NCBI GenBank assembly: GCA_050633305.1
Contig: JBOEGF010000006.1
Location: 170,485-218,158, forward strand
DNA from: Nannocystales bacterium
GTDB lineage: Bacteria; Myxococcota_A; Polyangia; Nannocystales; Nannocystaceae
Direction: 5' to 3'
DNA: 47,674 bases
The notes beneath the pieces are model-generated. The model did no database searches and had not been told where the DNA came from. It saw only the letters and a program-made list of their open reading frames with translations. This document shows positions 19,403 to 36,048 of the stretch, one piece after another. Position 1 is the first letter of the stretch; every line of letters starts with the position of its first letter. Position numbers and translations under genes: made by a program.

Positions 19403-19469
19403 CGGCCGGGGCATAGCATGGTCCACCCCGCAGGCCATCTTGCGCGGCCTCTCCCGTCTCCGCGAAGGG

Positions 19470-20731: not shown

Positions 20732-22174
20732 TCAAGGCAATTGCAGCAACGCGGCGCTTGGCTTCCCGTTGGCCAGCTCGACGCCCAAGAAGACGCGCGG
20801 AGCTGCACCCCGGTCTTGCCGAAGTCGACGCACCTCGGAGATCCGGCCCGCCAGGTCCTCGTACGAGTCGATGTCGGTCCCCATCATCGAGCGGATCCGG
20901 GACCCCACCAACGCGTCGGGGTCCCCCCACATCCGGGTCCCGGGGAGCACCGCGCGCACGGTGGGATGCTCCGCCTCACTGTCGAGCCGCAGCCCGAGCT
21001 GTTCCTCAGCGTCGATGCCCACCTGGTCACGGGCACTGGCGGCGGCGATCTCGACCTGAAGGTCGAGAGTCTCGGTGCCACGGACCGCCATCACCGCGAG
21101 CACCTCCCCTTCGAACATGCCGCGCACGGTCCGTTGCAGGTGCGCACTCAACGACTCAATCCTGGTGTCTTCGAGCCCGTCCAGTCGCTTGCCACGAAGG
21201 GCCACGATCACATCGCCGCGGCGGAGTCCCGCCAGATCCGCGGGCCCATCCGCCTCGACGTTTCCAACCACAAGCCCGGCTCCATACCCCTGCGCTTGTG
21301 CGAGCGCCGGATTGGCATCTTTGGAGCCCAGCGTGATGCCGATAACCCCGGAGCGCGCCCCCTCCGGCGCGGTGAGAGCCTCGAGAAACCCCCGAACGTG
21401 ATCCATCGGCAGCGCGAACGCGATGCCTTGCGCCTGTTCGGGCCGGGCGACAACGATACCGACGAGCTCCCCGTCGAGGTTGAAAAGGGGTCCGCCCGAG
21501 TTCCCCACGTTGATCGACGCGTCGAGCTGAAGCACCGCGCGCTGCGGGTCGCTGAGGATTCCGGTGCGGTCGATCGCAGAAACGATGCCGCGGCTGACAC
21601 TGTTGCGAAGCCCCAACGGATTGCCGATCGCGAACACCTCCTGGCCGACCACCAACTCCGACGAGCGACCGATCGCCGCCGCTTCAAACTCGGCCGGCTC
21701 GCCCTCGGCCGGCTCAAGACGAACGATGGCCAGGTCCTCCTCGGGGTCCGCGACGAGCACCGTCGCCCCCACTCGACGGTCGTTGGAGAACCGAGCCGTC
21801 AGCTCTGGCACCGCACCGAGGCGGGCGCCGAACAGCGTCGGCGGTGGACGCAACGCTTCGGCCAGCACGTGGTAGTTCGTGAGCACGATGCCCGAGGGGT
21901 CCACGATGACCCCAGCGCCCAACCCCGCGGATGACTCGAGGTTGACGACGCTGCTCATCGTTCCCGCCACCGCTTCCGCAAGCGTCGGACGGAGTTGTGC
22001 GGGCTCGGCGGCGGCCCGAGGCGCGACGTCGGGGGACGGGAGCACGACTGAAGGGGGCTGTGGCGGCGGTACCTGTTGCTTGCCCAGGTACACGGCCGCG
22101 CCTCCAAGCAAGACGCCGGTCAAGCCGGCGCCGGCGGCGAGCCACAAGGAACTGGATGCACGCGGGGGCGACAC
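20732..22174 (-). CDS. HtrA/DegP-like S1C serine protease with PDZ domain
   Basis: N-terminal TM; TNYHV, DLA, GNSGGPL catalytic triad motifs; GPADLAGLRRGDVI PDZ. Confidence 0.92.
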   Translation of the reverse strand: MSPPRASSSLWLAAGAGLTGVLLGGAAVYLGKQQVPPPQPPSVVLPSPDVAPRAAAEPAQLRPTLAEAVAGTMSSVVNLESSAGLGAGVIVDPSGIVLTNYHVLAEALRPPPTLFGARLGAVPELTARFSNDRRVGATVLVADPEEDLAIVRLEPAEGEPAEFEAAAIGRSSELVVGQEVFAIGNPLGLRNSVSRGIVSAIDRTGILSDPQRAVLQLDASINVGNSGGPLFNLDGELVGIVVARPEQAQGIAFALPMDHVRGFLEALTAPEGARSGVIGITLGSKDANPALAQAQGYGAGLVVGNVEADGPADLAGLRRGDVIVALRGKRLDGLEDTRIESLSAHLQRTVRGMFEGEVLAVMAVRGTETLDLQVEIAAASARDQVGIDAEEQLGLRLDSEAEHPTVRAVLPGTRMWGDPDALVGSRIRSMMGTDIDSYEDLAGRISEVRRLRQDRGAAPRVFLGVELANGKPSAALLQLP

Positions 22175-22291: not shown

Positions 22292-22951
22292 CTATCGCCC
22301 GAATGCCTCGACCAGCGCGGCGATGGTGGGCTCGTCGAGTTGGGATGTGGGTTCGATCCCGTTGGCGAGCTGGAAGGTTTCGAGGACAACCGCGAGATTC
22401 GCTCCGGGACTGGCGAATCCCAGGCTCATGAGCCGCGCCCCTGCTCCGCGGACCGTCTGCGGAGGGTCCAAGTCTCCCACTTGCAACACCGCCACGGCCC
22501 CATCGTCGAAGGTTATCGTCACCACCCGCAGCCGCGTGGAGATCCATTCTTCGAGATACCCGTCGCCGTCGGTCTCACCGCGCCGCCCATTCCCTCCTTC
22601 GTCGAACAGATAGCCCATGTTGGCCTTGGGCCCCTCGTCGGCGTGCACGAAGCGCATACGAAGGCGTTCGGGGATCCCGCGCCGCTTGAAGCGATGGAGC
22701 AACCCGGTGTGGCAGTTCGGCTGTTCCTTCTGCCGGATCTCCGGCACAGACACACGGTCTCCGGGAAGGAGAACATTCGGGTCTCCCCGCGTCTCGCGGA
22801 GCGTGCGATTCTCGGGAGCATCCCACAGGGTCTGCCAAAAGAAGCCGTGCTTCTCCGCGATGGAGCTGATGCATTCCCCGCGGCGTACGACGTGACTGCC
22901 TTCGCCGACAGGCTCCAGGGGGTCGGTGCTGACGTGATCCGACGAGGGCAC
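22292..22951 (-). CDS. LysM-like plus C-terminal peptidoglycan-binding-domain protein
   Basis: GTG 22951 after GAGGA; HVVRRGECISSIA..GF.W..LWD.PEN...R..PNVLLPGD LysM-like; RL.SLGF...FQ..NGI..T..LD..T PG_binding_1-like. Confidence 0.75.
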   Translation of the reverse strand: MPSSDHVSTDPLEPVGEGSHVVRRGECISSIAEKHGFFWQTLWDAPENRTLRETRGDPNVLLPGDRVSVPEIRQKEQPNCHTGLLHRFKRRGIPERLRMRFVHADEGPKANMGYLFDEGGNGRRGETDGDGYLEEWISTRLRVVTITFDDGAVAVLQVGDLDPPQTVRGAGARLMSLGFASPGANLAVVLETFQLANGIEPTSQLDEPTIAALVEAFGR

Positions 22952-22952
22952 A

Positions 22953-25577
22953 TCATCCTCGATACGGGCGCGTCGCCCCGCATCCGTTGCAGCGATGTTC
23001 CACCTCTTGCGGGGAAGAAGGGCCCCGCCCTGTCGCATCCCAGCGCAACGCCACGGCCCCTCGAGGGTGCCCTGGATCGGTGTCGCCCTGCATGCCGACA
23101 TAGCGCGCCCGTGCGCTTGCGTTGTAGCGGCGGCTCCAGCCGAGTGCTTCGTACTTCAGGATCGCGGCGCTGTGCGGGTGCCCGAGCCCCCCGGCATCGA
23201 CCGCATACTCGTGGCTGTTGTCCGTCGGATCGACGCCGTAGGAATATGCGACTTGCCCCCCTTTCAGGTACCGATCCGCTCGGCGTCCAACCGCCAGCGC
23301 GGCCTCCCGTCGACGGGACGCCGAAGCAGCGCCGCGAATGACAGCCTCCACCGCTTCCGCGGAGACGCCCGCCGTGTACCCGGCTGCCCGAGCAGCCGCC
23401 CATCCGGCGGCGAGGATGGCAAAGTCCATCGCGCCTCCGGGTCGGTGGTGCGCAGCCGCGCTCTGTGCAGCCTGAACACGGGCAAGCATCGTCGGGATCC
23501 CTGCTCCGGCCGGCATCGCTCCCAGTGATGTGAATCCGCGGTGCACAGCGTTGTCGTTGTAGGCAGCCCGAGCCGCGTACGTACGGTTCTCAAGCAGGCA
23601 CGCCGTCGCCACCGTGGCCACATCGTTGAGCACACCGTCCCGAGCGCCATAGATGCCCAACTGAACTCGGAAACCGCGTCGTTTCGAGGGCACCAGGCCC
23701 ATGACGTAGTTCCCTGACATGTATGAATAGGCGAACGCGGCGATGTCTCCGGCGTGCGTTGGATTGAGCGCCGGTCCGTGGTGCGTGATCGCATCCGCCG
23801 CAAGGTTGGCGACATGACCGACCAGTTTCCTGGGAACGATCCCCTTCGCACACCGGGCAATGTCCTCGTTGCTCAGCGGTGTGCCGGCACGGGCCCCGGC
23901 AATGCTGGACCGAGCGAGTTCTACGACCGTCTCGACGGGTGACACCCCGATGCTACGGGCAATCGACTCGCAGAAGTGCGCCAGCGCTGCGGCAAGCCCC
24001 ACGACTTGGCTGTCCTGGGTTCGCCAAGCCGCGAGCGCCGAGGCAGCAGCCGCCGCACTGAGTTTCTCGTCGTTGGCCTCCCCTGGATATGCCTCATCCA
24101 CGCAGAGGATTGCCGCCGCCGCCGCCCGAGCCACCCGGGAGACGTGAGCCCGGATGTTTCGACGGGAGTGCTTCGTGCGGCCGCGCTTGAGGCTCAACGC
24201 GGCCAAGGACGCCTCGGCGACCAGGCTTCGACCCGCGCCTGCTCGCGAAGCGCGACGTACGACAGCCATCGCCGTCGACGAGTGCGGAGCCATGGGCATG
24301 TGCACCGCCGAGAGGACCTCACCGCACTCATAGATCGCACCATGGTGCATCGCGGTCATGGCCACGACCTCCGGCGTTTTTCGGGGCCGACGCAATGACG
24401 GAACGAAAGCGAAGTCTGCGTCCCCGGTGAGCAGCACGAATTTCTGCGACGTGCGGAACTTCCCCACATCTGCCGTCAGTGCAGGCAAGGGCGGCCGGGC
24501 TGGACCCAAAGCCCGCCGGACAAGTGCCGGATGCAAGCGAGCCGGAAGCTTGGCGTCCCAGGTGAAGTGGGGAGCGGCGCGCATGCACTGATGACGGCGA
24601 GAGCGGACATTGACCGCCACCACGGCGCCCGTCGCCGCGACAAGCTCTGCACGAATAGCGCCTGGTCCGATCCCTTGTGCCGCGAGGGAGGGGAACGTCG
24701 CAGGGAACGCGCCGAGGTGCACCAGGATACCGACCCCGGTGCGGTGGGCTCGGGCGGCTCGGAGTGCCGCGACTCCACATTCTTGAACCGGCAGATGCGG
24801 CTGTCGGGTCGTGAAGGACTGCGAAGCCGCCAACATGATGACCAACGGCTCGGCCAGGCGAGCGTCCGCGACCGTGTAGCCTTGCGCCGCGTAGTTCCCT
24901 CGCACCCACGCGACCGCCCCGCGAGACCGGCCGATCGCGGCGGCGGACACCGCTGCCACCGGCTGGTTGGGAACGGCCGGCGCAGCATTCACGAATGGAC
25001 GCCGAAACCCATCCTGCACACAAATGAATGCGGCCAACCCCGACCCGTTGGCCTTGTTCGCCGCGTTCGCGTTGCCAAGACACCGCTCGACATACCCCCA
25101 CGGGAACGTCATCGAGCGGGGCAGCGCACGGCCGGCATGACGCTCGCGCGGCCATTGCAACACCTCTCCGCCGGCGTTCCGGATGTCCCGCTTGAGACGC
25201 GTTCCCAGTGCGCTGTGGGCCTGATCGGGCATCAGCCACCGCATCGTGAGGGCCTCCGGGCAGTGGAAGACGTAGTTGTAGTGATCGCGATCCAGATGGC
25301 TGAGAATGATCAGCGGATCATCACATAGACATGGTTTGGTCGGAGGCGCGGGTTGCCTCGCCCGCGTCGTGCTGTACCCCAAGTCGTAGTACGCGAGGAT
25401 ACGCCCATCGGCGCCTACGATCGGGTTGCAGTTACCCTGCCCCACATCCAGGACCCCGACGAACGGTTCGGAGATCGAAGCCCCACACCCACAAACGACA
25501 CCACCGTGGACCGGTGTGTTGCAGGCGTGGCACGTCAGCGACTGCGCGGGATTGTTCTGACCTTGTAGGTACGCCAC
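22953..25577 (-). CDS. ComEC/Rec2-type metallo-beta-lactamase-fold putative nuclease with two large insertions and terminal Cys motifs
   Basis: DVGQG, YDLG, ILSHLDRDH, NGSG, LLTGDA, HHG and SYG...GHP motifs in canonical order; CHAC/CGC at N-terminus, CNGC at C-terminus. Confidence 0.7.
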   Translation of the reverse strand: MAYLQGQNNPAQSLTCHACNTPVHGGVVCGCGASISEPFVGVLDVGQGNCNPIVGADGRILAYYDLGYSTTRARQPAPPTKPCLCDDPLIILSHLDRDHYNYVFHCPEALTMRWLMPDQAHSALGTRLKRDIRNAGGEVLQWPRERHAGRALPRSMTFPWGYVERCLGNANAANKANGSGLAAFICVQDGFRRPFVNAAPAVPNQPVAAVSAAAIGRSRGAVAWVRGNYAAQGYTVADARLAEPLVIMLAASQSFTTRQPHLPVQECGVAALRAARAHRTGVGILVHLGAFPATFPSLAAQGIGPGAIRAELVAATGAVVAVNVRSRRHQCMRAAPHFTWDAKLPARLHPALVRRALGPARPPLPALTADVGKFRTSQKFVLLTGDADFAFVPSLRRPRKTPEVVAMTAMHHGAIYECGEVLSAVHMPMAPHSSTAMAVVRRASRAGAGRSLVAEASLAALSLKRGRTKHSRRNIRAHVSRVARAAAAAILCVDEAYPGEANDEKLSAAAAASALAAWRTQDSQVVGLAAALAHFCESIARSIGVSPVETVVELARSSIAGARAGTPLSNEDIARCAKGIVPRKLVGHVANLAADAITHHGPALNPTHAGDIAAFAYSYMSGNYVMGLVPSKRRGFRVQLGIYGARDGVLNDVATVATACLLENRTYAARAAYNDNAVHRGFTSLGAMPAGAGIPTMLARVQAAQSAAAHHRPGGAMDFAILAAGWAAARAAGYTAGVSAEAVEAVIRGAASASRRREAALAVGRRADRYLKGGQVAYSYGVDPTDNSHEYAVDAGGLGHPHSAAILKYEALGWSRRYNASARARYVGMQGDTDPGHPRGAVALRWDATGRGPSSPQEVEHRCNGCGATRPYRG

Positions 25578-25580
25578 GGG

Positions 25581-26270
25581 TCAGCCTTGGTCGTCGCCCG
25601 AGTTGAGCGCGTGAAGAACCGGCTGCGCCACCGGCGGGTCAAGCTCCAAGAAACGCGGGGGCAACTCGCGGATCCTCGACAGTGTATAGGCGCCTCGGTC
25701 CTCGAACTCAGTCTCTGCACCGCGCTGAAGCAACAGAGGTGCTGTCAGCGTCGCCCCCTCCCCCGCAGCGGGAGAGAACGACAGATGATACCAAGCACCG
25801 CTCTCGGGAGGACGCTCGATGCCATACCGGTGGACCCAGTCGTCCGCATCGACCACAACATCGAACAGCACGTTGTCTGGCGGATGGCCGTCGAAATACC
25901 GGTTGTAGCCGGCCCGGATTGCACGAAGCACGACGCGGTGTGCCGGAGCGAAGCTCTCCCATGCGTCCGCGAACGTGGCTCCCTGCAACAGGTGACGGAG
26001 CCGCCCAAAGTCATCGCCGAGGGCCTCGAGCGCATCGTGCAACCACGACGCGAGCACGCATTCGAAGTCCAGTGTCCAAGGCCCGTGCGCCTCTCCCTCC
26101 ACAGATCCGAGGAATCCATACGTCTCGATGAGCTGTTCAACGTGGTTGGCCTGCTCAGCGTTGCGGGCCACGTGATGGGCATCCGCGTGTTCGGGCGCAA
26201 TGACGGCCTGGCCCAGCACGGGATCGGGAGCCGGGTTTGCTGGCGGCGCGGTCTGTGTCGTACGCGGCAT
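25581..26270 (-). CDS. Hypothetical protein (229 aa), in frame with the downstream MBL gene
   Basis: ATG 26270; globular-looking composition; separated from the next ORF by only TGA-CCC. Confidence 0.6.
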   Translation of the reverse strand: MPRTTQTAPPANPAPDPVLGQAVIAPEHADAHHVARNAEQANHVEQLIETYGFLGSVEGEAHGPWTLDFECVLASWLHDALEALGDDFGRLRHLLQGATFADAWESFAPAHRVVLRAIRAGYNRYFDGHPPDNVLFDVVVDADDWVHRYGIERPPESGAWYHLSFSPAAGEGATLTAPLLLQRGAETEFEDRGAYTLSRIRELPPRFLELDPPVAQPVLHALNSGDDQG

Positions 26271-26713
26271 AAAAAATAGGGAGAGGCTCTTACACCCACA
26301 CCGGACCCTGGGAACGGATCCACCCCGAAGGGTGGGTCGGCCCATGCCAGCCGCCTCACATCAAGTGCAAGGTCGGCCCGTCTCCCCTCACCCTGGCACT
26401 CCCGCGTCTGCACTTTTTGGCATTGGGAATACCTGGCGGGCGGTCTTGGACTCCCGCCTATGAATGTACAGATTCTAGAATGCGATGCAAGAGACCTTCG
26501 AGCAGCTGAAATCGATCTGAGATAGCCGGCGTCGGCCTCGACGGTTGAAATCGCCGTGGGCTCGACCCCGGGCCTCCTTGCCAACGACGACACGCCGAGG
26601 ACCAGGAACAAGAACGCCGCGTCAACTCCCGGGACTCGACCTCCCCCTCCCTGGAACAAGCCCACCTGAAGCGGCTGCAACACGGGTGGGACATACGGTG
26701 GCCCGCCTCGGCT

Positions 26714-28021
26714 TCACTGGCCTGCGGGGGGACTGAGCCACCGTGGTGGGTCCTCGGCCCTCGCCTGCGCCAGCGCTTGCGCGGCGGACATCATCTCCGG
26801 CGGCCAAGGCTCACGAACGATCTCAAACGTGCCGTGGTCGAAGGGCTGGTTGGGAGCGGCCGTCTTCGGCGCAAGCCGCTCTCGGTCGCCCTCACGCAGC
26901 AGCTCCAACGCGCGGTGGTGGCAGTACGGATTGTTGCCACGCTTGCCGGTGAGTACGTGTCCGGTCCACGTACAGCCCGACATGCACTCCTGCTTGTAGT
27001 AGCAGGTGCCGCAATACCCCCACAGCTCGGTCACAGGGCGCTCACGGGTGAAGCGAAGCGCGGAGCTTCGCTCCCAGATGTCGAGCAGCGCATGGTCGCG
27101 AATGTTGCCACCAGTGTACGCGGCGGTCGGCAAAGAGGGGCAGCCTTTGATGTCGCCGTTGGCCTCGACGCCCAGGGTGTCGCGGCCGGCTCCGCACGAC
27201 GCCGTATGCATGCCCTGCTCGTCTCGCCTTAGCATCGACTCGTAGGGCCCGAAGTAACCGATGTTGGTGCCCGGCCAGAAGACAACCCCGGCTTCGTCAC
27301 ATCGCCGTTGCATGCGGGCGACCATCGGCATGACCTCGATCATCTGCCATGGTTGCAACAGCAGGTCGGGATCGTCGGCCGCCCGCCCCATCGCCACGGT
27401 CAGCTGGACCTGCCAGCTATGGACACCCAGCGGCTTGATCACGTCGAAGAGCGGCACGACCTCGCGGAGGTTGGTCGCACAGATCTGAGTGTTGACCGAG
27501 ACCGGCACCCCTACCTCTGTCAGCGCTTCGAGGGCTCCCAGGGCTGCCGCATGAGAGCCGCGGACGGCCCGGAGATGATCATGGGTCGCCTGCAGCCCGT
27601 CGACCGACACCGACACCGTCGAGATCCCCACGTCTGCCATCGCCTGGGCGCGCGCCCGGTCGATTCCGCGTCCCCCGGTGGTCACGGAGGTGTCCACGCC
27701 GCGCTCGATGAGTGTTGCGGCGATCTCCAGCCAGTCCTCCCGGAGGTAGGCCTCACCACCGATGAGGGTGATCGAGTCCAACCCGAGGTCCGCGATCTGG
27801 TGCGCGAGGTCCAGCGCCTCGGCGGTCGAGAGCTCATCGGGACGCGCGTGCCCTGCTCGTGACCCGCAGTGTCGACAGGCGAGGTCACACTTGAGCGTGA
27901 CCTCCCAGACCGCATACGACGGCCGGACCGCATCGACCGCGCGCACGGTCGAGTCCAACGGCCGATCGCGCACCGCAGGAGGGCCAGGGGGAGCGATCGG
28001 CAGAGAGCGACGGCGCATCAC
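26714..28021 (-). CDS. Radical SAM/SPASM peptide maturase (splicease-like)
   Basis: AVWEVTLKCDLACRHCGSRAG (CxxxCxxC), IGGEAYLR, NIGYFGPYE, SPASM CGAG...GDIKGCPSL...CGTCYY..ECMSGC...NNPYCHHR; start overlaps the upstream stop (GTGA). Confidence 0.9.
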   Translation of the reverse strand: MMRRRSLPIAPPGPPAVRDRPLDSTVRAVDAVRPSYAVWEVTLKCDLACRHCGSRAGHARPDELSTAEALDLAHQIADLGLDSITLIGGEAYLREDWLEIAATLIERGVDTSVTTGGRGIDRARAQAMADVGISTVSVSVDGLQATHDHLRAVRGSHAAALGALEALTEVGVPVSVNTQICATNLREVVPLFDVIKPLGVHSWQVQLTVAMGRAADDPDLLLQPWQMIEVMPMVARMQRRCDEAGVVFWPGTNIGYFGPYESMLRRDEQGMHTASCGAGRDTLGVEANGDIKGCPSLPTAAYTGGNIRDHALLDIWERSSALRFTRERPVTELWGYCGTCYYKQECMSGCTWTGHVLTGKRGNNPYCHHRALELLREGDRERLAPKTAAPNQPFDHGTFEIVREPWPPEMMSAAQALAQARAEDPPRWLSPPAGQ

Positions 28022-28584
28022 GGCTTCTTCGGAGCTGGCTTGGGCTTCGCAGGCCGAGGCGGCGCCCCGTACTTGGTCTTGTGCTTGCGAGGCGGCGGCG
28101 TGGGTGCCGGTGGTTTCTCGATCCCTGGGTTGTCCGGTCGTGGCGGCGCTCCGTACTTCCGCGCAGGCCTCGTGTCGGGAACGATGGGAGTCTGCGTCCC
28201 ATCGGGGTCGGTGTTCTCGCCACCTTCCGCCTCCGAAGGCGCCGAGTCCTGCGCCTCGGGCTCGGGCTCAGGCTTGTTCGGCTCAGGCTCAGGCTTGTCC
28301 GGCTCGGGCTCGGGCTCGCCGGGGTCGTGACCGCTTGGGTCTGGAATCGCGGAGTCGAGTTCGACCGGCTCCCCTTTCGTCGGGTCGCTCGGGGTTGCGC
28401 CGAAATCGGCGGCGCCGGGCGTTTGCGGCACCCCATAACAGGCGGCCAGCCCCAGCGGCATCATCGCGGTGAGTACCGCCGCCTTCCAGATGTGCGCCGT
28501 CGTCTTCGGACGCTTCCCGCAAAACGGACACTCCTCGCCATCGCGAACGTGCCTTTGGCAACCCGCACAAACCGTCAGAGCCAT
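28018..28584 (-). CDS. Putative maturase substrate B: Zn-ribbon leader + lipoprotein with YG motifs
   Basis: MALTVCAGCQRHV...CPFC; LGLAA-C-YGVP; Pro/Glu linker; two KYGAPPRP motifs. Confidence 0.75.
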   Translation of the reverse strand: MALTVCAGCQRHVRDGEECPFCGKRPKTTAHIWKAAVLTAMMPLGLAACYGVPQTPGAADFGATPSDPTKGEPVELDSAIPDPSGHDPGEPEPEPDKPEPEPNKPEPEPEAQDSAPSEAEGGENTDPDGTQTPIVPDTRPARKYGAPPRPDNPGIEKPPAPTPPPRKHKTKYGAPPRPAKPKPAPKKP

Positions 28585-28674
28585 GCCGACATCATACATC
28601 CACCCAAGCGACAACGGGACGCAAAGCGAGTCCGGCGCTCCGCGTCGGGGTAGACGCAGGGCCACCGGGTCGGA

Positions 28675-29163
28675 TCAATCCCCGGGGGTCGGTTTCGGCG
28701 GGCTCGGGACCGGCTTGGGGCGCGGCGGCGCGCCATACTTGGGCTTGGGCCGCGGCGGCGCACCATACTTCGTCGCGCGCCGCGGTTCTTTGACGAGCGG
28801 AGACTCGGTCCCGTCGGGCTCGGTGTTCTCGCCCCCCGCAGCGTCGGCCTCGCCGGGATCATGTCCGCTGGGGTCAGGCTCGGCCGAATCGAGTTCTGGC
28901 GTCGTGGGCTTTGGAGTTTCTGGTTTCGTCGGGGGTTTCGTCGGCACGGTTTCGGGCTCGGCGTCGCGGACCGACGGCTTCGCATCCACGGCTCCCTCGG
29001 TCGCCGGCTCGCCGCTGCAGCCCGCCAATCCCAGCGGGAGCATCGCAGCGAGCATCGCGGCTCTCCAGTCGTGAACGACCGTGCGCGGTCGAGTGCCACA
29101 AAACGGGCACACGTCTGAACCGCGAACGTGTCGGCGACAGCCACCGCAAACCGTGAGACTCAT
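28675..29163 (-). CDS. Putative maturase substrate A: Zn-ribbon leader + lipoprotein with tandem KYGAPPRP
   Basis: MSLTVCGGCRRHV...CPFC; LGLAG-C; paralogous to B (ELDSA.PDPSGHDPGE, GGENT.PDGT). Confidence 0.75.
   Translation of the reverse strand: MSLTVCGGCRRHVRGSDVCPFCGTRPRTVVHDWRAAMLAAMLPLGLAGCSGEPATEGAVDAKPSVRDAEPETVPTKPPTKPETPKPTTPELDSAEPDPSGHDPGEADAAGGENTEPDGTESPLVKEPRRATKYGAPPRPKPKYGAPPRPKPVPSPPKPTPGD
28711..28770. repeat. 30-bp tandem duplication encoding KYGAPPRPKP x2
   Basis: 28711-28740 vs 28741-28770 match at 27/30 nt. Confidence 0.9.
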
Positions 29164-29252
29164 GCGCCGATCATACGGGCCCACAGCGGCAGTTTCAGCA
29201 CCGGCAGCGTTGACACCCCCGCGACCTCGCGGTAGGTCCCCGGCGCAACCGA

Positions 29253-29297: not shown

Positions 29298-29882
29298 ATG
29301 ACCCCGCAACTTCACGACGCCGACAGCGCGCTCGCGTTCGCCCAGGACGAACTGGCGGACGTATTCGGCAATATCGCGGCGTTTTGGGGCTTCACCAAGA
29401 CCCAGGGCCGCATCTACGGCCTGCTGTTCCTGTCTGAGTCGCCGATGAGCCACGGCGACATCCAGCGGCGCCTCAGCATCAGCGCGGGCTCCACCAGCAT
29501 GACGCTCTCCTCGCTGGTCCAGTGGGGCGTGCTTCGACGCGACGGTCGGCTGTACGTCGCCGAGACCGACATGTGGAAGGTGATCACCGGCGTGTTCCGT
29601 CGGCGCGAGCGCGATCAGATCGACACGGCGATCGTGCGGGTCGACCGGATCGCTGCCGCGCTCTCCTCCCTTGAGGCCCCCTCGAAGGCCTCGGCATTCG
29701 CGCTCACGCGTGTCCGGCAGCTGTCCGAGTTTTTCAGCCTCGGTCGGCGCTTCATCGACGCGTTCATCTCCCGCGGGCCAGTCCGCGATCTGCTCACCAA
29801 CATCGCGACCCGGGCCGCCACCTTCGGCACCCGAAACCCAACATCCGCCACTTTGGAGCCCGATGCCCCGCTCGGCCACTGA
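29298..29882 (+). CDS. GbsR/MarR-family transcriptional regulator
   Basis: FG..A.FWGF....GRIYGLLFLS..P....DI...L.IS.GS.S..L..L.QWG winged-HTH pattern. Confidence 0.85.
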   Translation: MTPQLHDADSALAFAQDELADVFGNIAAFWGFTKTQGRIYGLLFLSESPMSHGDIQRRLSISAGSTSMTLSSLVQWGVLRRDGRLYVAETDMWKVITGVFRRRERDQIDTAIVRVDRIAAALSSLEAPSKASAFALTRVRQLSEFFSLGRRFIDAFISRGPVRDLLTNIATRAATFGTRNPTSATLEPDAPLGH

Positions 29883-30906
29883 ACTCTCGACCCCGCCCCG
29901 TCCCGCGGTCCCCTCGAACACGCAGGCTGCGTTTCTCGCGGGGTGCATCGGCATGGTCGCCGAAGACTTGGCCGCCGCCGAGACGCGGCTACAGACGTTG
30001 ATGCACTCGGACATCACCGTGATCCCCGACGCCGCCGGGCACCTCGCCTTCGCCGGTGGAAAGCGACTGCGCCCGCTGCTGGCCTTGTTGTGTGCGCAGG
30101 CCGCAGGTGTCACTGACCCCGATCGCATCACCGTCGCCGCCGTGGGCGAGCTCCTGCACACCGCCACATTGCTGCACGACGACGTCATCGACGAAGGCGA
30201 GTTCCGGCGCGGGCGCCCCTGCCCTCGCATCGTGCATGGCAATGGCATCTCGGTCCTCACCGGCGACTTCTGCCTGTCTCGCTCTCTGCAAGCCGTGGCC
30301 AACACCGGCCACATCGACGCGGTGCAGTCGATGGCCAACACCGTCATGCGCATGGCCGAGGGAGAGGTCGCACAGCTGTACGGAGCCGGCGGCGCGGCGC
30401 TGGATCGCGACCACTACAACATGATCATCGAGCGCAAGACGGCCACGCTCATCGCGTGGTGCTCGCAGGTTGGGTGCTTGGCGCGGCCCGAAGACCGCGA
30501 GCCCCTTCGGCGCTTCGGCATGGAGCTCGGCTACGCGTTTCAGATCGCCGACGACCTGCTCGACTACGGCATTCGCAACGCTTCGGGTCCTGGCGAGACG
30601 GGCAAAAACCCTGGCCAAGACCTCCGAGAAGGCAAGTGGACGCTTCCCTTGCTGCTCGCGTGTGAGGCCGACCCACAGCTGCACGCCGACGTGCTCGAAG
30701 CGTTCGATGCCGGGCCGCCCATGGCCGAGGCCACCGCGACCGACATCGTCCAGCGGGTCCTGGCCAGCGATGGTGTCGCGGCCGCGCGCACCATCGCCGA
30801 CCAACATGCCGACGCTGCCGCCGAGGCGCTCAGCGCCCTTCCGCCCAGCGCGGCCCGCGAGGCCCTGCAGCAGATCCCCAGCTACGTCGTTCGGAGAACC
30901 AACTAG
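29863..30906 (+). CDS. Polyprenyl diphosphate synthase (IspB/HepT-like)
   Basis: GGKRLRP, LLHDDVID (FARM), FQIADDLLD (SARM), GKNPGQDLREGK; ATG 29863 after GGAG. Confidence 0.92.
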   Translation: MPRSATELSTPPRPAVPSNTQAAFLAGCIGMVAEDLAAAETRLQTLMHSDITVIPDAAGHLAFAGGKRLRPLLALLCAQAAGVTDPDRITVAAVGELLHTATLLHDDVIDEGEFRRGRPCPRIVHGNGISVLTGDFCLSRSLQAVANTGHIDAVQSMANTVMRMAEGEVAQLYGAGGAALDRDHYNMIIERKTATLIAWCSQVGCLARPEDREPLRRFGMELGYAFQIADDLLDYGIRNASGPGETGKNPGQDLREGKWTLPLLLACEADPQLHADVLEAFDAGPPMAEATATDIVQRVLASDGVAAARTIADQHADAAAEALSALPPSAAREALQQIPSYVVRRTN

Positions 30907-31671
30907 ATGACCAGCACGACCCCCTCCGTCCGAACCGTCGACGAGCACGGCGACCGCGTCCAAGGCATGTTCGATCGGATCGCGCACGGCTACGACCGCG
31001 CGAACCGCCTGATGAGCCTGGGCATCGACGTCCGTTGGCGCAACGATGCCGTCCGGGACCTGTTGCCCAAGGACATGCCGGCAGACCGCCGTGCCCAGGT
31101 TCTGGATCTTTGCGCGGGCACCATGGACAGCAGCGTCGAGATCCATCGGCAGTACCCGCAGGCCGACATTGTCGCCGGCGACTTCGCCGAGGAGATGCTG
31201 GCCAAAGGCGCTCACAAGCTCACCGGTGCGGTCGGCGAACGCATCACCGCGCAGCCGATGGATGCCCACGAGCTGCCGTTCGAGGACGACAGCCTCGACG
31301 CGATCTTCTGCGCGTTTGGTGTACGCAACGTGTCCGACCTCCCGCGAGCCACGGCCCAACAGGCCCGCGCGCTTCGCCCGGGCGGCCGCCTCACCATTCT
31401 CGAGTTCTTCCGCCCCACCTCGGGCCTCTCTCGGTTCCTGCACACCGCCTACAACCGCACCGTGCTGCCGGTCGTTGGTTGGGCCGCGACGGGGGACCTC
31501 GACGCCTACACATACCTGCCCAAGAGCATCGGCAAGTTCGAGACCGTGGGCGCCTACGAGACCCTGCTAACCGAGCAAGGCTTCACGAACGTTTCGATCA
31601 CCAAGCTCACGATGGGCATGGCCTGGATCGTCCGTGCCGAGTTGCCCACCGCTTCGCCGGAGACGACGTGA
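30907..31671 (+). CDS. menG: Demethylmenaquinone methyltransferase (UbiE/MenG)
   Basis: MFDRIA..YDRANRLMSLG, VLDLCAGT, FGVRNV, LRPGGRL.ILEF, Y.YLP.SI. Confidence 0.88.
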   Translation: MTSTTPSVRTVDEHGDRVQGMFDRIAHGYDRANRLMSLGIDVRWRNDAVRDLLPKDMPADRRAQVLDLCAGTMDSSVEIHRQYPQADIVAGDFAEEMLAKGAHKLTGAVGERITAQPMDAHELPFEDDSLDAIFCAFGVRNVSDLPRATAQQARALRPGGRLTILEFFRPTSGLSRFLHTAYNRTVLPVVGWAATGDLDAYTYLPKSIGKFETVGAYETLLTEQGFTNVSITKLTMGMAWIVRAELPTASPETT

Positions 31672-32285
31672 CCCCCCCGCCGGCCATGCCCAGCCGCATC
31701 GTCGTGTGCGTCGCCGGGGCTTCGGGATCAACGTACGCCAAGAGGCTGCTCGAGCTGCTCGCCGACGTGCAGCAAGGCCGCATCGAGGGCATGGACGCCC
31801 TGCCTGACCTGCAGGTCTCCTGGACCGCCTCAGCCAATGCGGCGGTGTGCTGGAAGGGCGAACTGGGCGAGCCCATGCCCGAGAGCATCCACGGCTTCCG
31901 ACGGTACGGACACAAGGATTTCGGCGCTCCGTTTGCCTCGGGCAGCAACGCGCCCGATGCCGTCATCGTCGCGCCCTGCTCCATGAGCACCCTCGCTCGG
32001 CTGGCCCACGGGGGCGGCGGAGACCTGCTCTCGCGGGCCGGCGAGGTCGCGCTCAAAGAGCGCAAGAAGCTGATCCTCTTGGCTCGCGAGACGCCGCTGT
32101 CGCTGGTGCACCTGCGCAACATGGTGGCCGTGACCGAAGCCGGCGCCGTCGTGCTACCCGCCATTCCTTCTTTCTACGCCGGCGTGCAGACGCTCGAGCA
32201 GGCCATCGATTCGGTCGTGCTTCGAGCCTTGGACCAAGCCGGCCTCCGACTTCCTCTGCTTCCTCGATGGGGAGACGACACATGA
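31668..32285 (+). CDS. ubiX: UbiX-family flavin prenyltransferase
   Basis: GASG, ASGS, APCSMSTL, RA..VALKER, RETP, P.FY. Confidence 0.9.
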   Translation: MTPPPAMPSRIVVCVAGASGSTYAKRLLELLADVQQGRIEGMDALPDLQVSWTASANAAVCWKGELGEPMPESIHGFRRYGHKDFGAPFASGSNAPDAVIVAPCSMSTLARLAHGGGGDLLSRAGEVALKERKKLILLARETPLSLVHLRNMVAVTEAGAVVLPAIPSFYAGVQTLEQAIDSVVLRALDQAGLRLPLLPRWGDDT

Positions 32286-32866
32286 GCATCACCGCCCAAG
32301 AGCTGCTCTCACTTCACCTTTCCCCGGCCTCCGCAGGTCGGCGAGCGTCCGCCCGCCGGGCCGCAATGTTCGGCGACGACATCTGGATTCGGGGCTGCGA
32401 TGCCGCCTCCGCCGAGCCTGCCTCCTGGCCCATGTCCGCCACCGCCGGCGACAACCTGGTGCTCCACGTCGAGCCGACCTCCGAGGGGCGCCGCGCGTAC
32501 GTCTCGTGGCTGCTCGAGGTGGGCGCCGTCCTACCCACTGGCGTCGCCGTGAGCGCCTACTCCACCGAGGCCGCCGGTTTGCACCGCCTGTGGTGCCTCG
32601 CAGCCGCCCGTATGGCCTTGCCCGCCGGCGTGCGCGTCGAGGTCCGCCACGACCTGGTCAGCATTCGCCTCGCCCAGATCGCCCTGGGCTTCGGCGTGGA
32701 CACCTTTGCCGGAACGCTGGAGTCCGACCGCAAGCTCCCGCTCGCCGGCGTCACCCGCCCCGACGAGGCCACCCGCGAGGGCATCGCCACCCTCATCCGC
32801 TCCGCCGGCCTGCGCCCGGTGTTCGAGCCTTCCAAAACGACCGCCAACGATCGAGCCGCGTCATGA
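32282..32866 (+). CDS. Degenerate CofH/MqnE-like C-terminal-domain protein lacking CxxxCxxC
   Basis: C-terminal half aligns by eye to the adjacent MqnE C-terminus; ATGA overlaps on both sides. Confidence 0.6.
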   Translation: MSITAQELLSLHLSPASAGRRASARRAAMFGDDIWIRGCDAASAEPASWPMSATAGDNLVLHVEPTSEGRRAYVSWLLEVGAVLPTGVAVSAYSTEAAGLHRLWCLAAARMALPAGVRVEVRHDLVSIRLAQIALGFGVDTFAGTLESDRKLPLAGVTRPDEATREGIATLIRSAGLRPVFEPSKTTANDRAAS

Positions 32867-34038
32867 CCGTCTCCAAAGCCGACCGCCAACGCTTCAGCAC
32901 CATCACCAGCAAGGTCCGCGACCGCGTGCCGCTGGATCTCGATGACGGGGTGTTTCTCTACCACTACCCCGACCTGCTTGCGCTGGGCTCCCTGGCCAAC
33001 GAAGTCCGCGAGGACCGCCACGGCGACCGCACGTACTTCAACATCAACTTTCACATCAACCCCACCAACGTGTGCGTGGCCAACTGCCGGTTCTGCAGCT
33101 TCGCCCGCCTCGAACCGGGGATGCCCAACGCCTACACGATGAGCCTCGATGAGATCCGCGGCAAACTCGTGGAGCGCAAGGACCAGCCGGTCACCGAGAT
33201 TCACATCGTCTCGGGCCTGCACCACGACCAGCCCTTCGAGTGGTACCTCGACACGCTTCGCGTGCTGAAGGACGAGAAGCCTTCAATTCACCTCAAGGCG
33301 TTCACCGCGGTCGAGATTCACTACTTCCACGAACGCTTTGGCATGAGCTACGAGGAGGTGCTCACCAAGCTGATGGACGCCGGACTGGGCAGCATGCCCG
33401 GCGGGGGGGCGGAGATCTTCCATCCGCGGGCCCGCAAGAAGCTGTGCGACGACAAGGCCACCGCCGAGCAGTGGCTGCAGGTGCACCGCACCGCCCACAA
33501 GCTGGGCCTGCGCACCAACTCGACCATGCTCTACGGCACCATCGAGACCATCGAAGAGCGGGTCGACCACATGCTGCGGCTACGGGACCTCCAGGACGAG
33601 ACCGGCGGATTTCAGACATTCATCCCGCTGTCGTTCCACCCCGACGGCAACAAAATGGCCAAGCTGCCCTCGCCCACGGGCGTGGACGACTTGCGGACGT
33701 ATGCGGTCAGCCGCCTGATGCTGAACAACTTCGACCACATCAAGGCGTACTGGATCATGATCGGGGTCAAGACCGCCCAAATCGCCCAAAGTTTCGGCGT
33801 GGACGACATCGACGGGACCGTCCAGGAAGAGAAGATTTACCACATGGCCGGAGCGGACACCCCTCAGGTCATGACCCGCAACCAGCTGATCCGGCTGATC
33901 CGCGAGGCGGGCCGGACCGCGGTGGAGCGGGACACGCTCTACAAGGTGTTGTGGGAAGACGACGGCGCAAAGCTGCCCGGCATTCGGGTGGACGCGAGCG
34001 TGCCGTTTAGCGCGAATCGCCTTCCCGTCATTCAGTAG
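32863..34038 (+). CDS. mqnE: Aminofutalosine synthase MqnE
   Basis: HINPTNVCVANCRFCSF, HLKAFTAVEI, SMPGGGAEIF, HIKAYWIM, EEKIYHMAG, VERDTLY. Confidence 0.92.
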   Translation: MTVSKADRQRFSTITSKVRDRVPLDLDDGVFLYHYPDLLALGSLANEVREDRHGDRTYFNINFHINPTNVCVANCRFCSFARLEPGMPNAYTMSLDEIRGKLVERKDQPVTEIHIVSGLHHDQPFEWYLDTLRVLKDEKPSIHLKAFTAVEIHYFHERFGMSYEEVLTKLMDAGLGSMPGGGAEIFHPRARKKLCDDKATAEQWLQVHRTAHKLGLRTNSTMLYGTIETIEERVDHMLRLRDLQDETGGFQTFIPLSFHPDGNKMAKLPSPTGVDDLRTYAVSRLMLNNFDHIKAYWIMIGVKTAQIAQSFGVDDIDGTVQEEKIYHMAGADTPQVMTRNQLIRLIREAGRTAVERDTLYKVLWEDDGAKLPGIRVDASVPFSANRLPVIQ

Positions 34039-34059
34039 CGCCCCCGAAAGGACCCTGCC

Positions 34060-36048
34060 ATGACCACTCTCAAGCTTTGGGCCGTTCAATTTCTCAACGC
34101 GCGGCCGTTGTACGCACCGCTGCAGACGATGAAGGCCACCGGATCCGACGGTTTGCCGTTGTTCGAGATCCACGAGGCCCTGCCGGCCGAGTGTGCACGC
34201 AAGCTCGCTTCGGGCGAGGCTGACTTGGCGCTGCTGCCGGTGGGCGCGTACGCGGAGATGCCGGAACTGGAGGTCGTCCCGGGCTTGGCGATCGCGGCGC
34301 GCGGCAAGGTGGACACGGTGGTGGTCGTGGGCCACTGCCCGTTGGAGGAGGCCACCGAGGTGCTGCTCGACGGCGCGAGCCGGACGTCCATCGCGCTGCT
34401 CAAGGTGCTGCTGCACGCGAAGGGACTGACGCCCACGCTGACCCCGGTCGCGCATGGCGAGGGTGCTCCGGCAGCGACGGGCACGACGTGTGCGTTGGTG
34501 ATCGGGGACGCGGCGTTTGGGCTGCCCGAGACGTTCCCGCATGTCACAGACATGGCCGCGGCCTGGTTCGAGCTGACCGGTCTGCCGATGGTGTTCGCGT
34601 TTTGGGCAGCGAAACCGGGCGTGTTGACCGATGAGCACGTCAAGGCGTTGCAAGCTGCCAAGGAGCGCGGCCTGAAGTTCGCCGAGCAGCATGCGGAGAA
34701 GTACCGCAAGAGCGTGCTTGCCGAGGGTCGCGAGGCGCTGAGCACCAACGCCTACGCGAACTACCTGCGCAAGACGATCCGGTTCAACTTCGACAGCTAC
34801 GAGCGCGAGGGCCTGGTCGAGTTTCTCTCGCGCGCGAACGCCTGCGGGGCGGTCACGATCCCTGGCCTGGCCGAAGGGGACACGGTGCATGTGCACTTCA
34901 AGGGCGCGACGTACGATGTGGCGGAGCGGGCTCGAAGCGCCCACAAGCCGCTGAGCGCCGATGCGATTCTGGCCAAAGGAGCGGCGGGCGAGCGGCTGAG
35001 CTTTGCCGAAGGCCTTTATCTGTACGACAACGCGGACCTATTCGCGCTGGGCGAGGCCGCAGACGCCCGTCGCAAGGCGCTGCACCCCGAAGAAGTCGTC
35101 ACGTACATCATCGACCGCAACGTCAACTACACGAACGTGTGCACGGCTCGCTGCCAGTTCTGCAACTTCTACCGACCGCCAGGCAAAGAGGACGGCTACG
35201 TGCTCAGCCGCGAAGTGCTGGCGCAGAAGTTCAAGGAGACGGAAGCGCTCGGCGGGGTTCAGATTCTGCTTCAAGGGGGGCTCAACCCGGACCTGCGCAT
35301 CGAATGGTACGAGGACTTCTTCCGCTGGACGAAGGCCAACTTCAACCTGCGGATGCACGCGCTCTCGCCTACCGAGATCATCCACATCGCGCACCTCGAG
35401 GACCTGCCGGTCCGCACGGTGCTGGAGCGGCTGCACGCGGCGGGGCTGGACTCGCTGCCCGGCGGTGGGGCGGAGATGTTGCACGACGACATTCGCAACC
35501 GCATCTCGCCGTTCAAGAACAGCACCGACGAGTGGATCGACGTGATGAAGGTCGCCCACGAGCTGGGGCTGAAGACCACCTGCACCATGGTGTTCGGCTT
35601 TCAGGAGACGGCCGAGCACGCCCTCGTGCACATGGACAGGCTCCGAGAGACCCAAGACCTGGCGCTATCACGCGGAGTCGACGGTGCCGTCCCGGACGGG
35701 CGATTCACCGCGTTCATCGTCTGGCCGTTTCAGGCGGCGGGCACGAGTTTGCGGTTGCGCGATGACACCAGCGCGTGGCGGTACCTGCGAATGCAGGCAC
35801 TGGCGCGGCTGTACTTGGACAACATCCCGAACATCCAGGTCAGCTGGCCCACGCTGGGGCCTGAGATCGGCGAGGTCGCGCTGCGCTTTGGCGCCAACGA
35901 CTTTGGCTCGGTGATGATCGAGGAAAACGTGGTCTCGCAGGCGGGCGCGCACTTCATGCTCACCGCCGAGCAGATCGAGCACCACATTCGGCACGCTGGG
36001 TTCACCCCCAGCCGCCGCAACATGCAATACGACCGGCTCACGGCATGA
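34060..36048 (+). CDS. mqnC: Fused chorismate dehydratase MqnA - cyclic dehypoxanthine futalosine synthase MqnC
   Basis: N-part: FLNARPL, SRTS..LL, LVIGD.A, W.ELTGLPMVFAFW (MqnA). C-part: VTYIIDRNVNYTNVCTARCQFCNF, LQGG, FGANDFGSVMIEENVV (MqnC). Confidence 0.9.
   Translation: MTTLKLWAVQFLNARPLYAPLQTMKATGSDGLPLFEIHEALPAECARKLASGEADLALLPVGAYAEMPELEVVPGLAIAARGKVDTVVVVGHCPLEEATEVLLDGASRTSIALLKVLLHAKGLTPTLTPVAHGEGAPAATGTTCALVIGDAAFGLPETFPHVTDMAAAWFELTGLPMVFAFWAAKPGVLTDEHVKALQAAKERGLKFAEQHAEKYRKSVLAEGREALSTNAYANYLRKTIRFNFDSYEREGLVEFLSRANACGAVTIPGLAEGDTVHVHFKGATYDVAERARSAHKPLSADAILAKGAAGERLSFAEGLYLYDNADLFALGEAADARRKALHPEEVVTYIIDRNVNYTNVCTARCQFCNFYRPPGKEDGYVLSREVLAQKFKETEALGGVQILLQGGLNPDLRIEWYEDFFRWTKANFNLRMHALSPTEIIHIAHLEDLPVRTVLERLHAAGLDSLPGGGAEMLHDDIRNRISPFKNSTDEWIDVMKVAHELGLKTTCTMVFGFQETAEHALVHMDRLRETQDLALSRGVDGAVPDGRFTAFIVWPFQAAGTSLRLRDDTSAWRYLRMQALARLYLDNIPNIQVSWPTLGPEIGEVALRFGANDFGSVMIEENVVSQAGAHFMLTAEQIEHHIRHAGFTPSRRNMQYDRLTA

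Follow-up and report, generated by a model that had tools for sequence, protein, structure and literature searches.

In a 47,674-nt stretch of a Nannocystales genome (GenBank assembly GCA_050633305.1, contig JBOEGF010000006.1, forward-strand positions 170,485 to 218,158; hereafter the window), the list of open reading frames (ORFs) and the sequence itself reveal three genes running in the same direction on the minus strand. They encode two precursor proteins, here called subA and subB, and a radical S-adenosylmethionine (radical SAM) enzyme with a SPASM domain. The pairing is conserved, and the three genes very probably encode an enzyme and its substrates. We propose that they constitute a two-component spliceotide-type system, in which the enzyme would excise tyramine from Tyr-Gly sites of precursors that would then follow the lipoprotein route. 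Taking the enzyme-substrate relationship, the splicing reaction and the export route jointly, and judging from sequence comparison, we place the probability of this reading at roughly 0.6.

Genes of the locus
28675-29163, minus strand: subA, 162 aa from ATG; zinc ribbon, then a lipoprotein-type signal and a Pro/Glu-rich tail with two KYGAPPRP sites
28018-28584, minus strand: subB, 188 aa from ATG; same architecture as subA
26714-28021, minus strand: radical SAM/SPASM enzyme, PlpX-like (splicease-like), 435 aa
28018-28021, minus strand: GTGA overlap between the GTG start of the enzyme gene and the TGA stop of subB, read from the sequence

The initial annotation had described subA and subB as paralogous precursors, and the comparison bears this out: BLASTP aligned them with 82 of 189 positions identical (43%, E 9e-43). 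Both proteins run from a short N-terminus through a zinc ribbon with the pattern C6-x2-C9...C19-P-F-C22, a basic stretch and a hydrophobic run of 14 residues to a lipobox-like Cys49 (LAG-C in subA, LAA-C in subB), and continue as a tail rich in Pro, Glu, Asp and Lys that carries two KYGAPPRP sites in each protein. Every tyrosine precedes a glycine (two of two in subA, three of three in subB), such that the annotated confinement of Tyr to YG holds at all five positions. The GTGA overlap was likewise found where translational coupling had been proposed. Since an alternative ATG lies only 3 nt after the GTG, either start of the enzyme gene would be coupled to subB.

Features of the precursors
29098-29148, minus strand: subA zinc ribbon C6-x2-C9...C19-P-F-C22, by sequence pattern
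29017-29061, minus strand: subA hydrophobic stretch AAMLAAMLPLGLAG and Cys49 (lipobox-like LAG-C)
28717-28770, minus strand: two subA KYGAPPRP motifs, residues 132-139 and 142-149, predicted splice sites
28519-28569, minus strand: subB zinc ribbon
28438-28482, minus strand: subB hydrophobic stretch AAVLTAMMPLGLAA and Cys49 (LAA-C)
28417-28440, minus strand: subB CYGVPQTP, with the third YG of the protein immediately following the lipobox Cys, kept in the L001-L003 orthologs
28135-28158, minus strand: subB KYGAPPRP site 1, residues 143-150
28051-28074, minus strand: subB KYGAPPRP site 2, residues 171-178

In the three closest relatives (loci L001-L003), the gene immediately upstream of the enzyme gene is an ortholog of subB (63-71% identity). 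Neither precursor matched a Pfam or NCBIfam family at E values up to 0.01, and a protein-atlas search with subB matched only Myxococcota clusters without names.

Conservation of the enzyme and its precursors

To survey the neighbourhoods of related enzymes, one genome per species was scanned; this gave 163 enzyme relatives, from which 80 loci were kept, nearly all in metagenome-assembled genomes of Polyangia type. One to five adjacent zinc-ribbon genes encoding YGx[PAV] were present at 63 of the 80 loci, such that the proposed combination of ribbon, lipobox and YGxP beside the enzyme is a recurrent arrangement. Four further loci (L048, L060, L061 and L069) hold a variant or a copy that is truncated or cut by the end of the contig. 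For closer comparison, a substrate set was defined by ribbon, hydrophobic stretch and Cys (n = 97, from 61 loci). Ninety-five of these genes lie on the strand of the enzyme gene; 86 of the 97 are no more than 1 kb away from it, including 40 at a distance of 100 nt or less. When the ORFs of the 80 loci were clustered all against all, every other gene family was confined to at most seven loci. Thus a RiPP recognition element or PlpY protein (RiPP, ribosomally synthesised and post-translationally modified peptide), a protease and a transporter are not part of the unit, in agreement with the earlier remark that no such gene is adjacent.

The substrates share little beyond their leader except the sites themselves. 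At least one YG occurs in 94 of the 97, and within the mature parts 278 of 295 tyrosines are followed by glycine, where about 59 would be predicted from a Gly frequency of 0.20. The consensus of the sites is [P/A]-[L>A>V>K,M,R,E]-Y-G-[A/G]-P-P, with Gly at position +2 in 69 of the 278, while the remainder of the tails can barely be aligned. The Lys-Tyr-Gly sites emphasised in the initial annotation are indeed present in subA and subB, but Lys is limited to a Nannocystaceae subclade; family-wide, the residue before Tyr is mostly Leu, Ala or Val.

The association was also assessed at the level of genomes. Two queries were run against the same 201 genomes of the phylum, namely the enzyme (E up to 1e-80) and the leader, for which a 60-position profile spanning ribbon and signal was used (E up to 1e-3).

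Occurrence in 201 genomes
Enzyme and leader: 39
Enzyme only: 16
Leader only: 8
Neither: 138

Of 47 leader-bearing genomes, 39 therefore also encode the enzyme, and the lipoproteins do not mostly occur without it. Seven of the eight leader-only genomes gave weak matches (E 7e-5 to 8e-4), strong ones being found only in genome G050. Because relatives are not independent, these counts describe an association rather than a statistical test.

Enzyme family and candidate chemistry

Pfam recognised Radical_SAM (74 bits) and SPASM (residues 276-340) in the enzyme. In an alignment of 65 relatives, the three cysteines of the radical SAM cluster motif are invariant and the seven cysteines of the SPASM region are invariant or at least 90% conserved, an arrangement that matches the canonical seven-Cys SPASM pattern. 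The motifs AVWE.TL.C...C.HCGSRAG and NIGYFGPYE, which had been said to fit the splicease clade, are common to the named family proteins and invariant or nearly so in the same alignment.

Features of the enzyme
27866-27889, minus strand: radical SAM cluster motif CDLACRHC (CxxxCxxC), residues 45-52 (C45, C49, C52)
27239-27265, minus strand: NIGYFGPYE, residues 253-261, conserved across the TIGR04103/TIGR03913 superclade
26912-27196, minus strand: SPASM region, Cys 276, 294, 337, 340, 346, 350 and 367

Among NCBIfam models, the best match was TIGR04103 ('nif11-class peptide radical SAM maturase 3'; 480.4 bits, E 3.6e-144), followed by TIGR03913 ('GDL motif peptide-associated radical SAM/SPASM maturase'; 426.9 bits, profile positions 17-389 of 477). 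The third-best family reached only 155 bits, and the best sactipeptide-maturase families at most 112 bits. We take TIGR04103 to be the PlpX family and to be equivalent to InterPro IPR026482. The founding splicease, PlpX, is placed in InterPro IPR026482 (PMC11002830). In direct comparison, the enzyme shares 53% identity over 379 aa (E 2e-143) with a named TIGR04103 protein from Nostoc punctiforme UO1, and 46% with P0124, the sole scanned relative that passes the TIGR03913 cutoff. The TIGR04103 cutoff was reached by none of 86 scanned relatives, the top score being 550.6 bits (P0130). A PDB search returned no splicease chain, with SkfB and PqqE as the best matches (E ~1e-20).

Phylogenetic trees were built with reference members that are cyanobacterial proteins named for the family by their sources, not experimentally characterised spliceases. 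A quick tree of 75 rows joined the Polyangia clade of the enzyme (16 rows; Shimodaira-Hasegawa-like approximate likelihood-ratio test, SH-aLRT, 99) to the TIGR04103-containing clade at SH-aLRT 83. In a more careful tree of 44 rows, the Polyangia clade (support 89/97), the TIGR04103-containing clade (100/99) and the TIGR03913 clade (100/95) formed a polytomy together with two clades holding this genome's other enzyme paralogs, all inside a group of 37 rows with support 92/91. Scores below the curated cutoffs and a clade of its own indicate that the enzyme, rather than being a PlpX equivalog, represents a separate branch of the splicease superfamily. The annotated splicease type is thus upheld by the two top-scoring families and by the 53% identity, but not as membership of either family at its cutoff, nor by a settled position relative to TIGR04103.

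On these grounds, together with the character of the sites, we consider tyramine splicing by the enzyme probable. A different radical reaction at Tyr-Gly-x-Pro within a genuine enzyme-substrate pair, such as a cross-link, hydroxylation or epimerisation, is in our estimate unlikely. SPASM enzymes are chemically diverse, as the other NCBIfam matches of this one illustrate, the enzyme stands below the TIGR04103 equivalog cutoff in its own clade, and the partner of one paralog in this genome carries YYAGP in place of YG; all three would suit another chemistry. Nevertheless, the enzyme shares more than half of its residues with the named TIGR04103 protein, and the substrate core matches PlpA splice tags. 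Moreover, the cores conserve only Y, G and P, offering no Cys, Trp or fixed partner for a cross-link; in 93 of 98 mature parts the lipobox Cys is the only cysteine, and Gly at +2 in 69 of the 278 sites speaks against a three-residue cyclophane to a C-beta at this position. Thioether, Lys-Trp and cyclophane chemistries were set aside for want of the needed residues in the cores.

Leader, export route and genomic setting

The four Cys, the Pro and the Phe of the ribbon are invariant in 82 aligned homologs of the substrates, while generic Pfam zinc-ribbon models gave no match to subA or subB. A similar element is found on enzymes of the neighbouring family: a C-terminal CxxC-x10-CP(H/F)C ribbon is present in all ten TIGR03913-clade enzymes examined and absent from the window's enzyme. 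In a single hhalign comparison, the N-terminal profile of the substrates matched the tails of these enzymes with a probability of 97.3% (E 2.5e-11).

Ribbon-tailed enzymes of the TIGR03913 clade
P0124, P0129, P0132, P0134, P0135, P0137, P0142, P0148, P0151, P0153

This correspondence suggests that the ribbon contacts the enzyme, in trans in the system described here and in cis in the TIGR03913 clade. An analogous activating helix is described on PlpY or on the RhaA leader (PMC11414181).

To avoid circularity in assessing the export signal, 106 ORFs were picked by the ribbon signature alone, and a lipobox-like context was defined as at least 10 of 12 preceding residues small or hydrophobic with A, G or S at -1. 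A Cys follows the ribbon within 75 aa in 105 of the 106, and stands in such a context in 98; YG is present in 103. The preferences at the lipobox are L/A/T at -3, A/T/V/S at -2, A/G at -1 and G/S at +2. Homologs of subA and subB thus appear, from this pattern, to take the lipoprotein route, a view in which we have good confidence. The main alternative is that the substrates are single-pass membrane proteins with the N-terminus inside, for which the hydrophobic stretch would be a transmembrane anchor and the ribbon would stay in the cytoplasm. The unusually long, folded n-region would fit such a topology, and the strong conservation of the ribbon might mean a lasting function. We nonetheless judge it quite improbable, since the hydrophobic run has a median of 14 residues in the 97 substrates, short for a membrane-spanning helix, and ends in [LAT][ATVS][AG]-C followed by G/S in 98 of 106 ORFs, with that Cys being the sole one of the mature part in 93 of the 98.

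The genome itself, an assembly of 11.0 Mb, contains five paralogs of the enzyme. The four beyond the window's enzyme are 42-51% identical to it, and three of them have a zinc-ribbon/lipobox gene at most 2 kb away.

Further enzyme paralogs in the assembly (contig:positions)
C24:108622-109767
C24:119713-120990
C23:241644-242855
C14:165384-166559

The C23 paralog contains an in-frame TGA; about one third of the enzyme matches in other genomes were flagged with one in-frame stop, mostly TGA. When the assembly was searched with a regular expression for the ribbon, 26 ORFs were found, 18 of which combine the ribbon with a hydrophobic stretch and Cys, and 17 of these 18 contain YG. Of these 18, five are found no further than 2 kb from an enzyme paralog, four stand in a row at 10-12 kb from one, and nine are elsewhere. 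The adjacency of substrate and enzyme that had been annotated therefore holds at this locus, but not for many substrate paralogs of the genome, which are unlinked to an enzyme gene. Two longer partners (C24:109838-110944, minus strand; C23:242903-243937, plus strand) carry a Ser/Thr-rich linker, a single GGF(I)YG and a Cys-rich domain with CAKxEKCMPWANDGG behind the ribbon and lipobox, which suggests that folded lipoproteins can also be substrates. With ribbon and lipobox kept and the cargo differing, the module travels with the enzyme superfamily. That the genes are merely adjacent, with the YG- and Pro-rich tails serving as ordinary low-complexity surface linkers and the enzyme acting on something else, can hardly be right: unlinked substrate paralogs and the 13 of 80 loci without a zinc-ribbon ORF within about 4 kb of the enzyme would allow it, but the pair recurs at 63 loci, with coupling or a gap of less than 100 nt for 40 of 97 substrates, Tyr is nearly always in YG (278/295) within tails that otherwise do not align, enzyme and leader are associated across genomes, and no alternative conserved neighbour exists among the 80 loci.

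Taken together, these results favour a model of tyramine splicing followed by lipoprotein export. In this model subA and subB would be synthesised in the cytoplasm and recognised there by the enzyme, which has no signal peptide. Recognition would probably proceed through the local P/A-x-Y-G-A/G-P-P core, and the zinc ribbon at the N-terminus, the signal-peptide helix or both would probably contribute as well. A tyramine equivalent (C8H9NO, -135.06 Da) would be cut from each x-Y-G, leaving an alpha-keto-beta-amino amide that would here be derived from Lys. The disordered, modified chain would be exported by the Sec/lipoprotein route and lipidated at the conserved Cys. Signal peptidase II would discard the ribbon together with the signal peptide, the two acting as a disposable leader, such that no dedicated leader protease or exporter would be needed. 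The expected product is a membrane-anchored flexible stalk bearing electrophilic keto-amides. Ser and Cys proteases are inhibited by spliced peptides but not by the unspliced versions (PMC11626197), so that the likeliest role would be that of a tethered inhibitor or trap of Ser/Cys proteases. Specificity would be set by the residue before Tyr (Lys here; Leu, Ala, Val, Asp or Glu elsewhere).

Several observations weigh against this model. The enzyme scores below both curated cutoffs (480 versus 725 bits for TIGR04103, 427 versus 592 bits, exactly 591.75, for TIGR03913), and the careful tree gives no branching order among the clades. At 17 of the 80 loci the strict substrate definition fails; 13 of them have no zinc-ribbon ORF at all, four of these 13 being short-flanked. 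No leader match was found in 16 of the 55 enzyme-positive genomes, and in the genome studied here a distance of over 10 kb separates 13 of the 18 zinc-ribbon/lipobox genes from the nearest enzyme paralog. A 34-residue n-region with a folded zinc ribbon is atypical for a signal handled by Sec and signal peptidase II, and a cytoplasmic, oxygen-sensitive enzyme must complete its work before export. As to the sites, one partner (C24:121008-121457, minus strand) has FGGSYYAGP twice in place of YG, where Y-A-G-P may be a second site type; the subB YG that directly follows the lipobox Cys may not be a substrate site; and known systems do not splice all of their YG sites, the DYG of RcsA having stayed unmodified (PMC11626197).

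Upstream of subA, a promoter scan found one site where 0.1 would be expected, on the basis of a consensus match only.

Promoter-like site
29170-29198, minus strand: CTGAAA-17-TATGAT, ending 7 nt before the subA ATG; consensus match only

A similar gtatgat element lies about 7-8 nt upstream of both substrate ATGs (29150-29200 and 28585-28625, minus strand), of which the scan scored only the subA copy. No clear Shine-Dalgarno sequence was seen before the ATGs in these two intervals, and the subA and subB transcripts may thus be leaderless, or the promoter may have been duplicated. A search of sequencing runs gave no RNA run among its matches, only a single DNA run with a small share of words. 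The G+C content of the window is 63-69%. At the protein level, its closest relatives carry the label Nannocystaceae (a family of Myxococcota), and a homolog is named from Enhygromyxa salina, a cultured relative.

Beyond the three genes, a DegP/HtrA-family serine protease with Trypsin_2 and PDZ domains is encoded at 20732-22174 (minus strand; TIGR02037 207 bits, below cutoff). Between it and the enzyme gene lie genes of 269, 874 and 254 aa (22292-26345, minus strand), for which no Pfam or NCBIfam family match was found. These three are absent from the closest relatives L001-L003, where the protease gene directly follows the enzyme gene, and the block looks like an insertion specific to this genome. 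The HtrA-type gene stands directly downstream of the enzyme gene, on the same strand, in L001-L003 only and in none of the other 77 loci; it was therefore treated as local synteny and not as a part of the system, and a functional link of the protease to the Lys-type sites, although possible, is unsupported. On both sides the locus is bordered by genes for quinone biosynthesis (17567-19438, minus strand; 29671-36048, plus strand), encoding UbiD, a polyprenyl synthetase, a UbiE-type methyltransferase, a UbiX-type flavoprotein, an MqnC/CofH-like radical SAM protein and VitK2_biosynth, and a MarR-like regulator gene (29298-29882) is divergent from subA.

Relation to known systems

Spliceases acting on peptides and proteins are already known. 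A total of 939 systems, spread over 189 genera, was predicted by Scott et al. 2022 from YG-rich neighbours of SPASM enzymes, as cited in PMC10533398 and PMC10849128, and the Polyangia clade may already be among them. Our literature search, which did not cover Scott et al. 2022 itself, found no report of splicease chemistry with lipoproteins or in Myxococcota, and nothing relevant on TIGR03913, TIGR04103 or the 'GDL motif'. A precedent for the use of the lipoprotein pathway by RiPPs does exist and supports the model of spliced lipoproteins: some precursors of ChrH-type MNIO enzymes (oxidative enzymes that depend on multinuclear non-haem iron) are modified in the cytoplasm and matured as triacylated lipoproteins, termed DAG-RiPPs (PMC13056109). 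Genome mining for DAG-RiPPs in the same source covered MNIO gene neighbourhoods only.

If the model is correct, backbone tyramine splicing would reach beyond small secreted peptides to a large family of exported lipoproteins, widespread in Polyangia and represented in this genome by about 18 genes and five enzyme paralogs. The RiPP-lipoprotein route would then extend from MNIO enzymes to radical SAM spliceases, and a zinc ribbon ahead of a signal peptide would be a new type of leader. The two-gene system would be a compact means of placing electrophilic keto-amide handles on membrane-anchored proteins, and would suggest a tethered defence of myxobacteria against their own or foreign proteases.

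A more far-reaching version, in which the ribbon is a portable module of the whole superfamily, the leader removes itself and the products are lipid-anchored warhead arrays, is offered tentatively, and we think it unlikely to be right in all its parts. Under it, a docking or activating ribbon would be carried by the leader of the substrate in Polyangia and by the enzyme C-terminus in the TIGR03913 clade, as a natural counterpart of the activating helix that is found on PlpY, on the RhaA leader or engineered onto an enzyme. Signal peptidase II would be the leader protease, ribbon and signal peptide together making up a RiPP leader that removes itself. The keto-amide 'warhead arrays' displayed by myxobacteria would have Lys, Leu, Ala, Val, Asp or Glu at P1 and could, during predation, neutralise proteases on vesicles or at the surface of the cell.

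Several known systems resemble the one described here in part. The closest are the tyramine spliceases PlpX/PcpX and RhaX/RasX/RcsX, with which it shares a radical SAM enzyme with a SPASM domain, TIGR04103 as the top hidden Markov model, substrate genes adjoining the enzyme gene and Tyr confined to X-Y-G. The core P-x-Y-G-x-P also resembles the splice tags derived from PlpA, PIRP(L/G)YGLPI, for example GPIRPLYGLPI (PMC10533398). Binary splicease systems work without a Y protein (PMC11414181), and the present system is like the binary RhaX/RasX/RcsX, and unlike type I PlpX/PcpX, in that no gene for a PqqD-like Y protein recurs beside the enzyme. It differs from the known spliceases in the enzyme, which is below the family cutoff and in a Polyangia clade of its own, and in the leader, a zinc ribbon plus lipoprotein-type signal in place of a Nif11, nitrile hydratase leader peptide (NHLP) or helical leader. 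The substrates, too, are unusual, being disordered proteins of 110-260 aa with one to six sites and with many paralogs per genome, some unlinked to the enzyme gene, and no dedicated protease or exporter accompanies them.

With the DAG-RiPPs, the system shares a precursor signal ending in a lipobox Cys, recognised here by pattern. Modification of the precursor in the cytoplasm, by an enzyme that lacks a signal peptide, would likewise precede export, and the general lipoprotein machinery would carry out leader removal and lipidation. The system is distinguished from the described DAG-RiPPs, all of which have a ChrH-type MNIO enzyme, by a radical SAM/SPASM enzyme, by a different chemistry and by the additional zinc ribbon before the signal. 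Sactipeptide and ranthipeptide thioether systems differ, as the cores here hold no Cys donors and nearly all mature parts (93/98) have only the lipobox Cys. Finally, the TIGR03913 maturases belong to the same superclade, P0124 being 46% identical to the enzyme; the enzyme scores below their cutoff, and the ribbon that they carry at the enzyme C-terminus is found here on the substrates.

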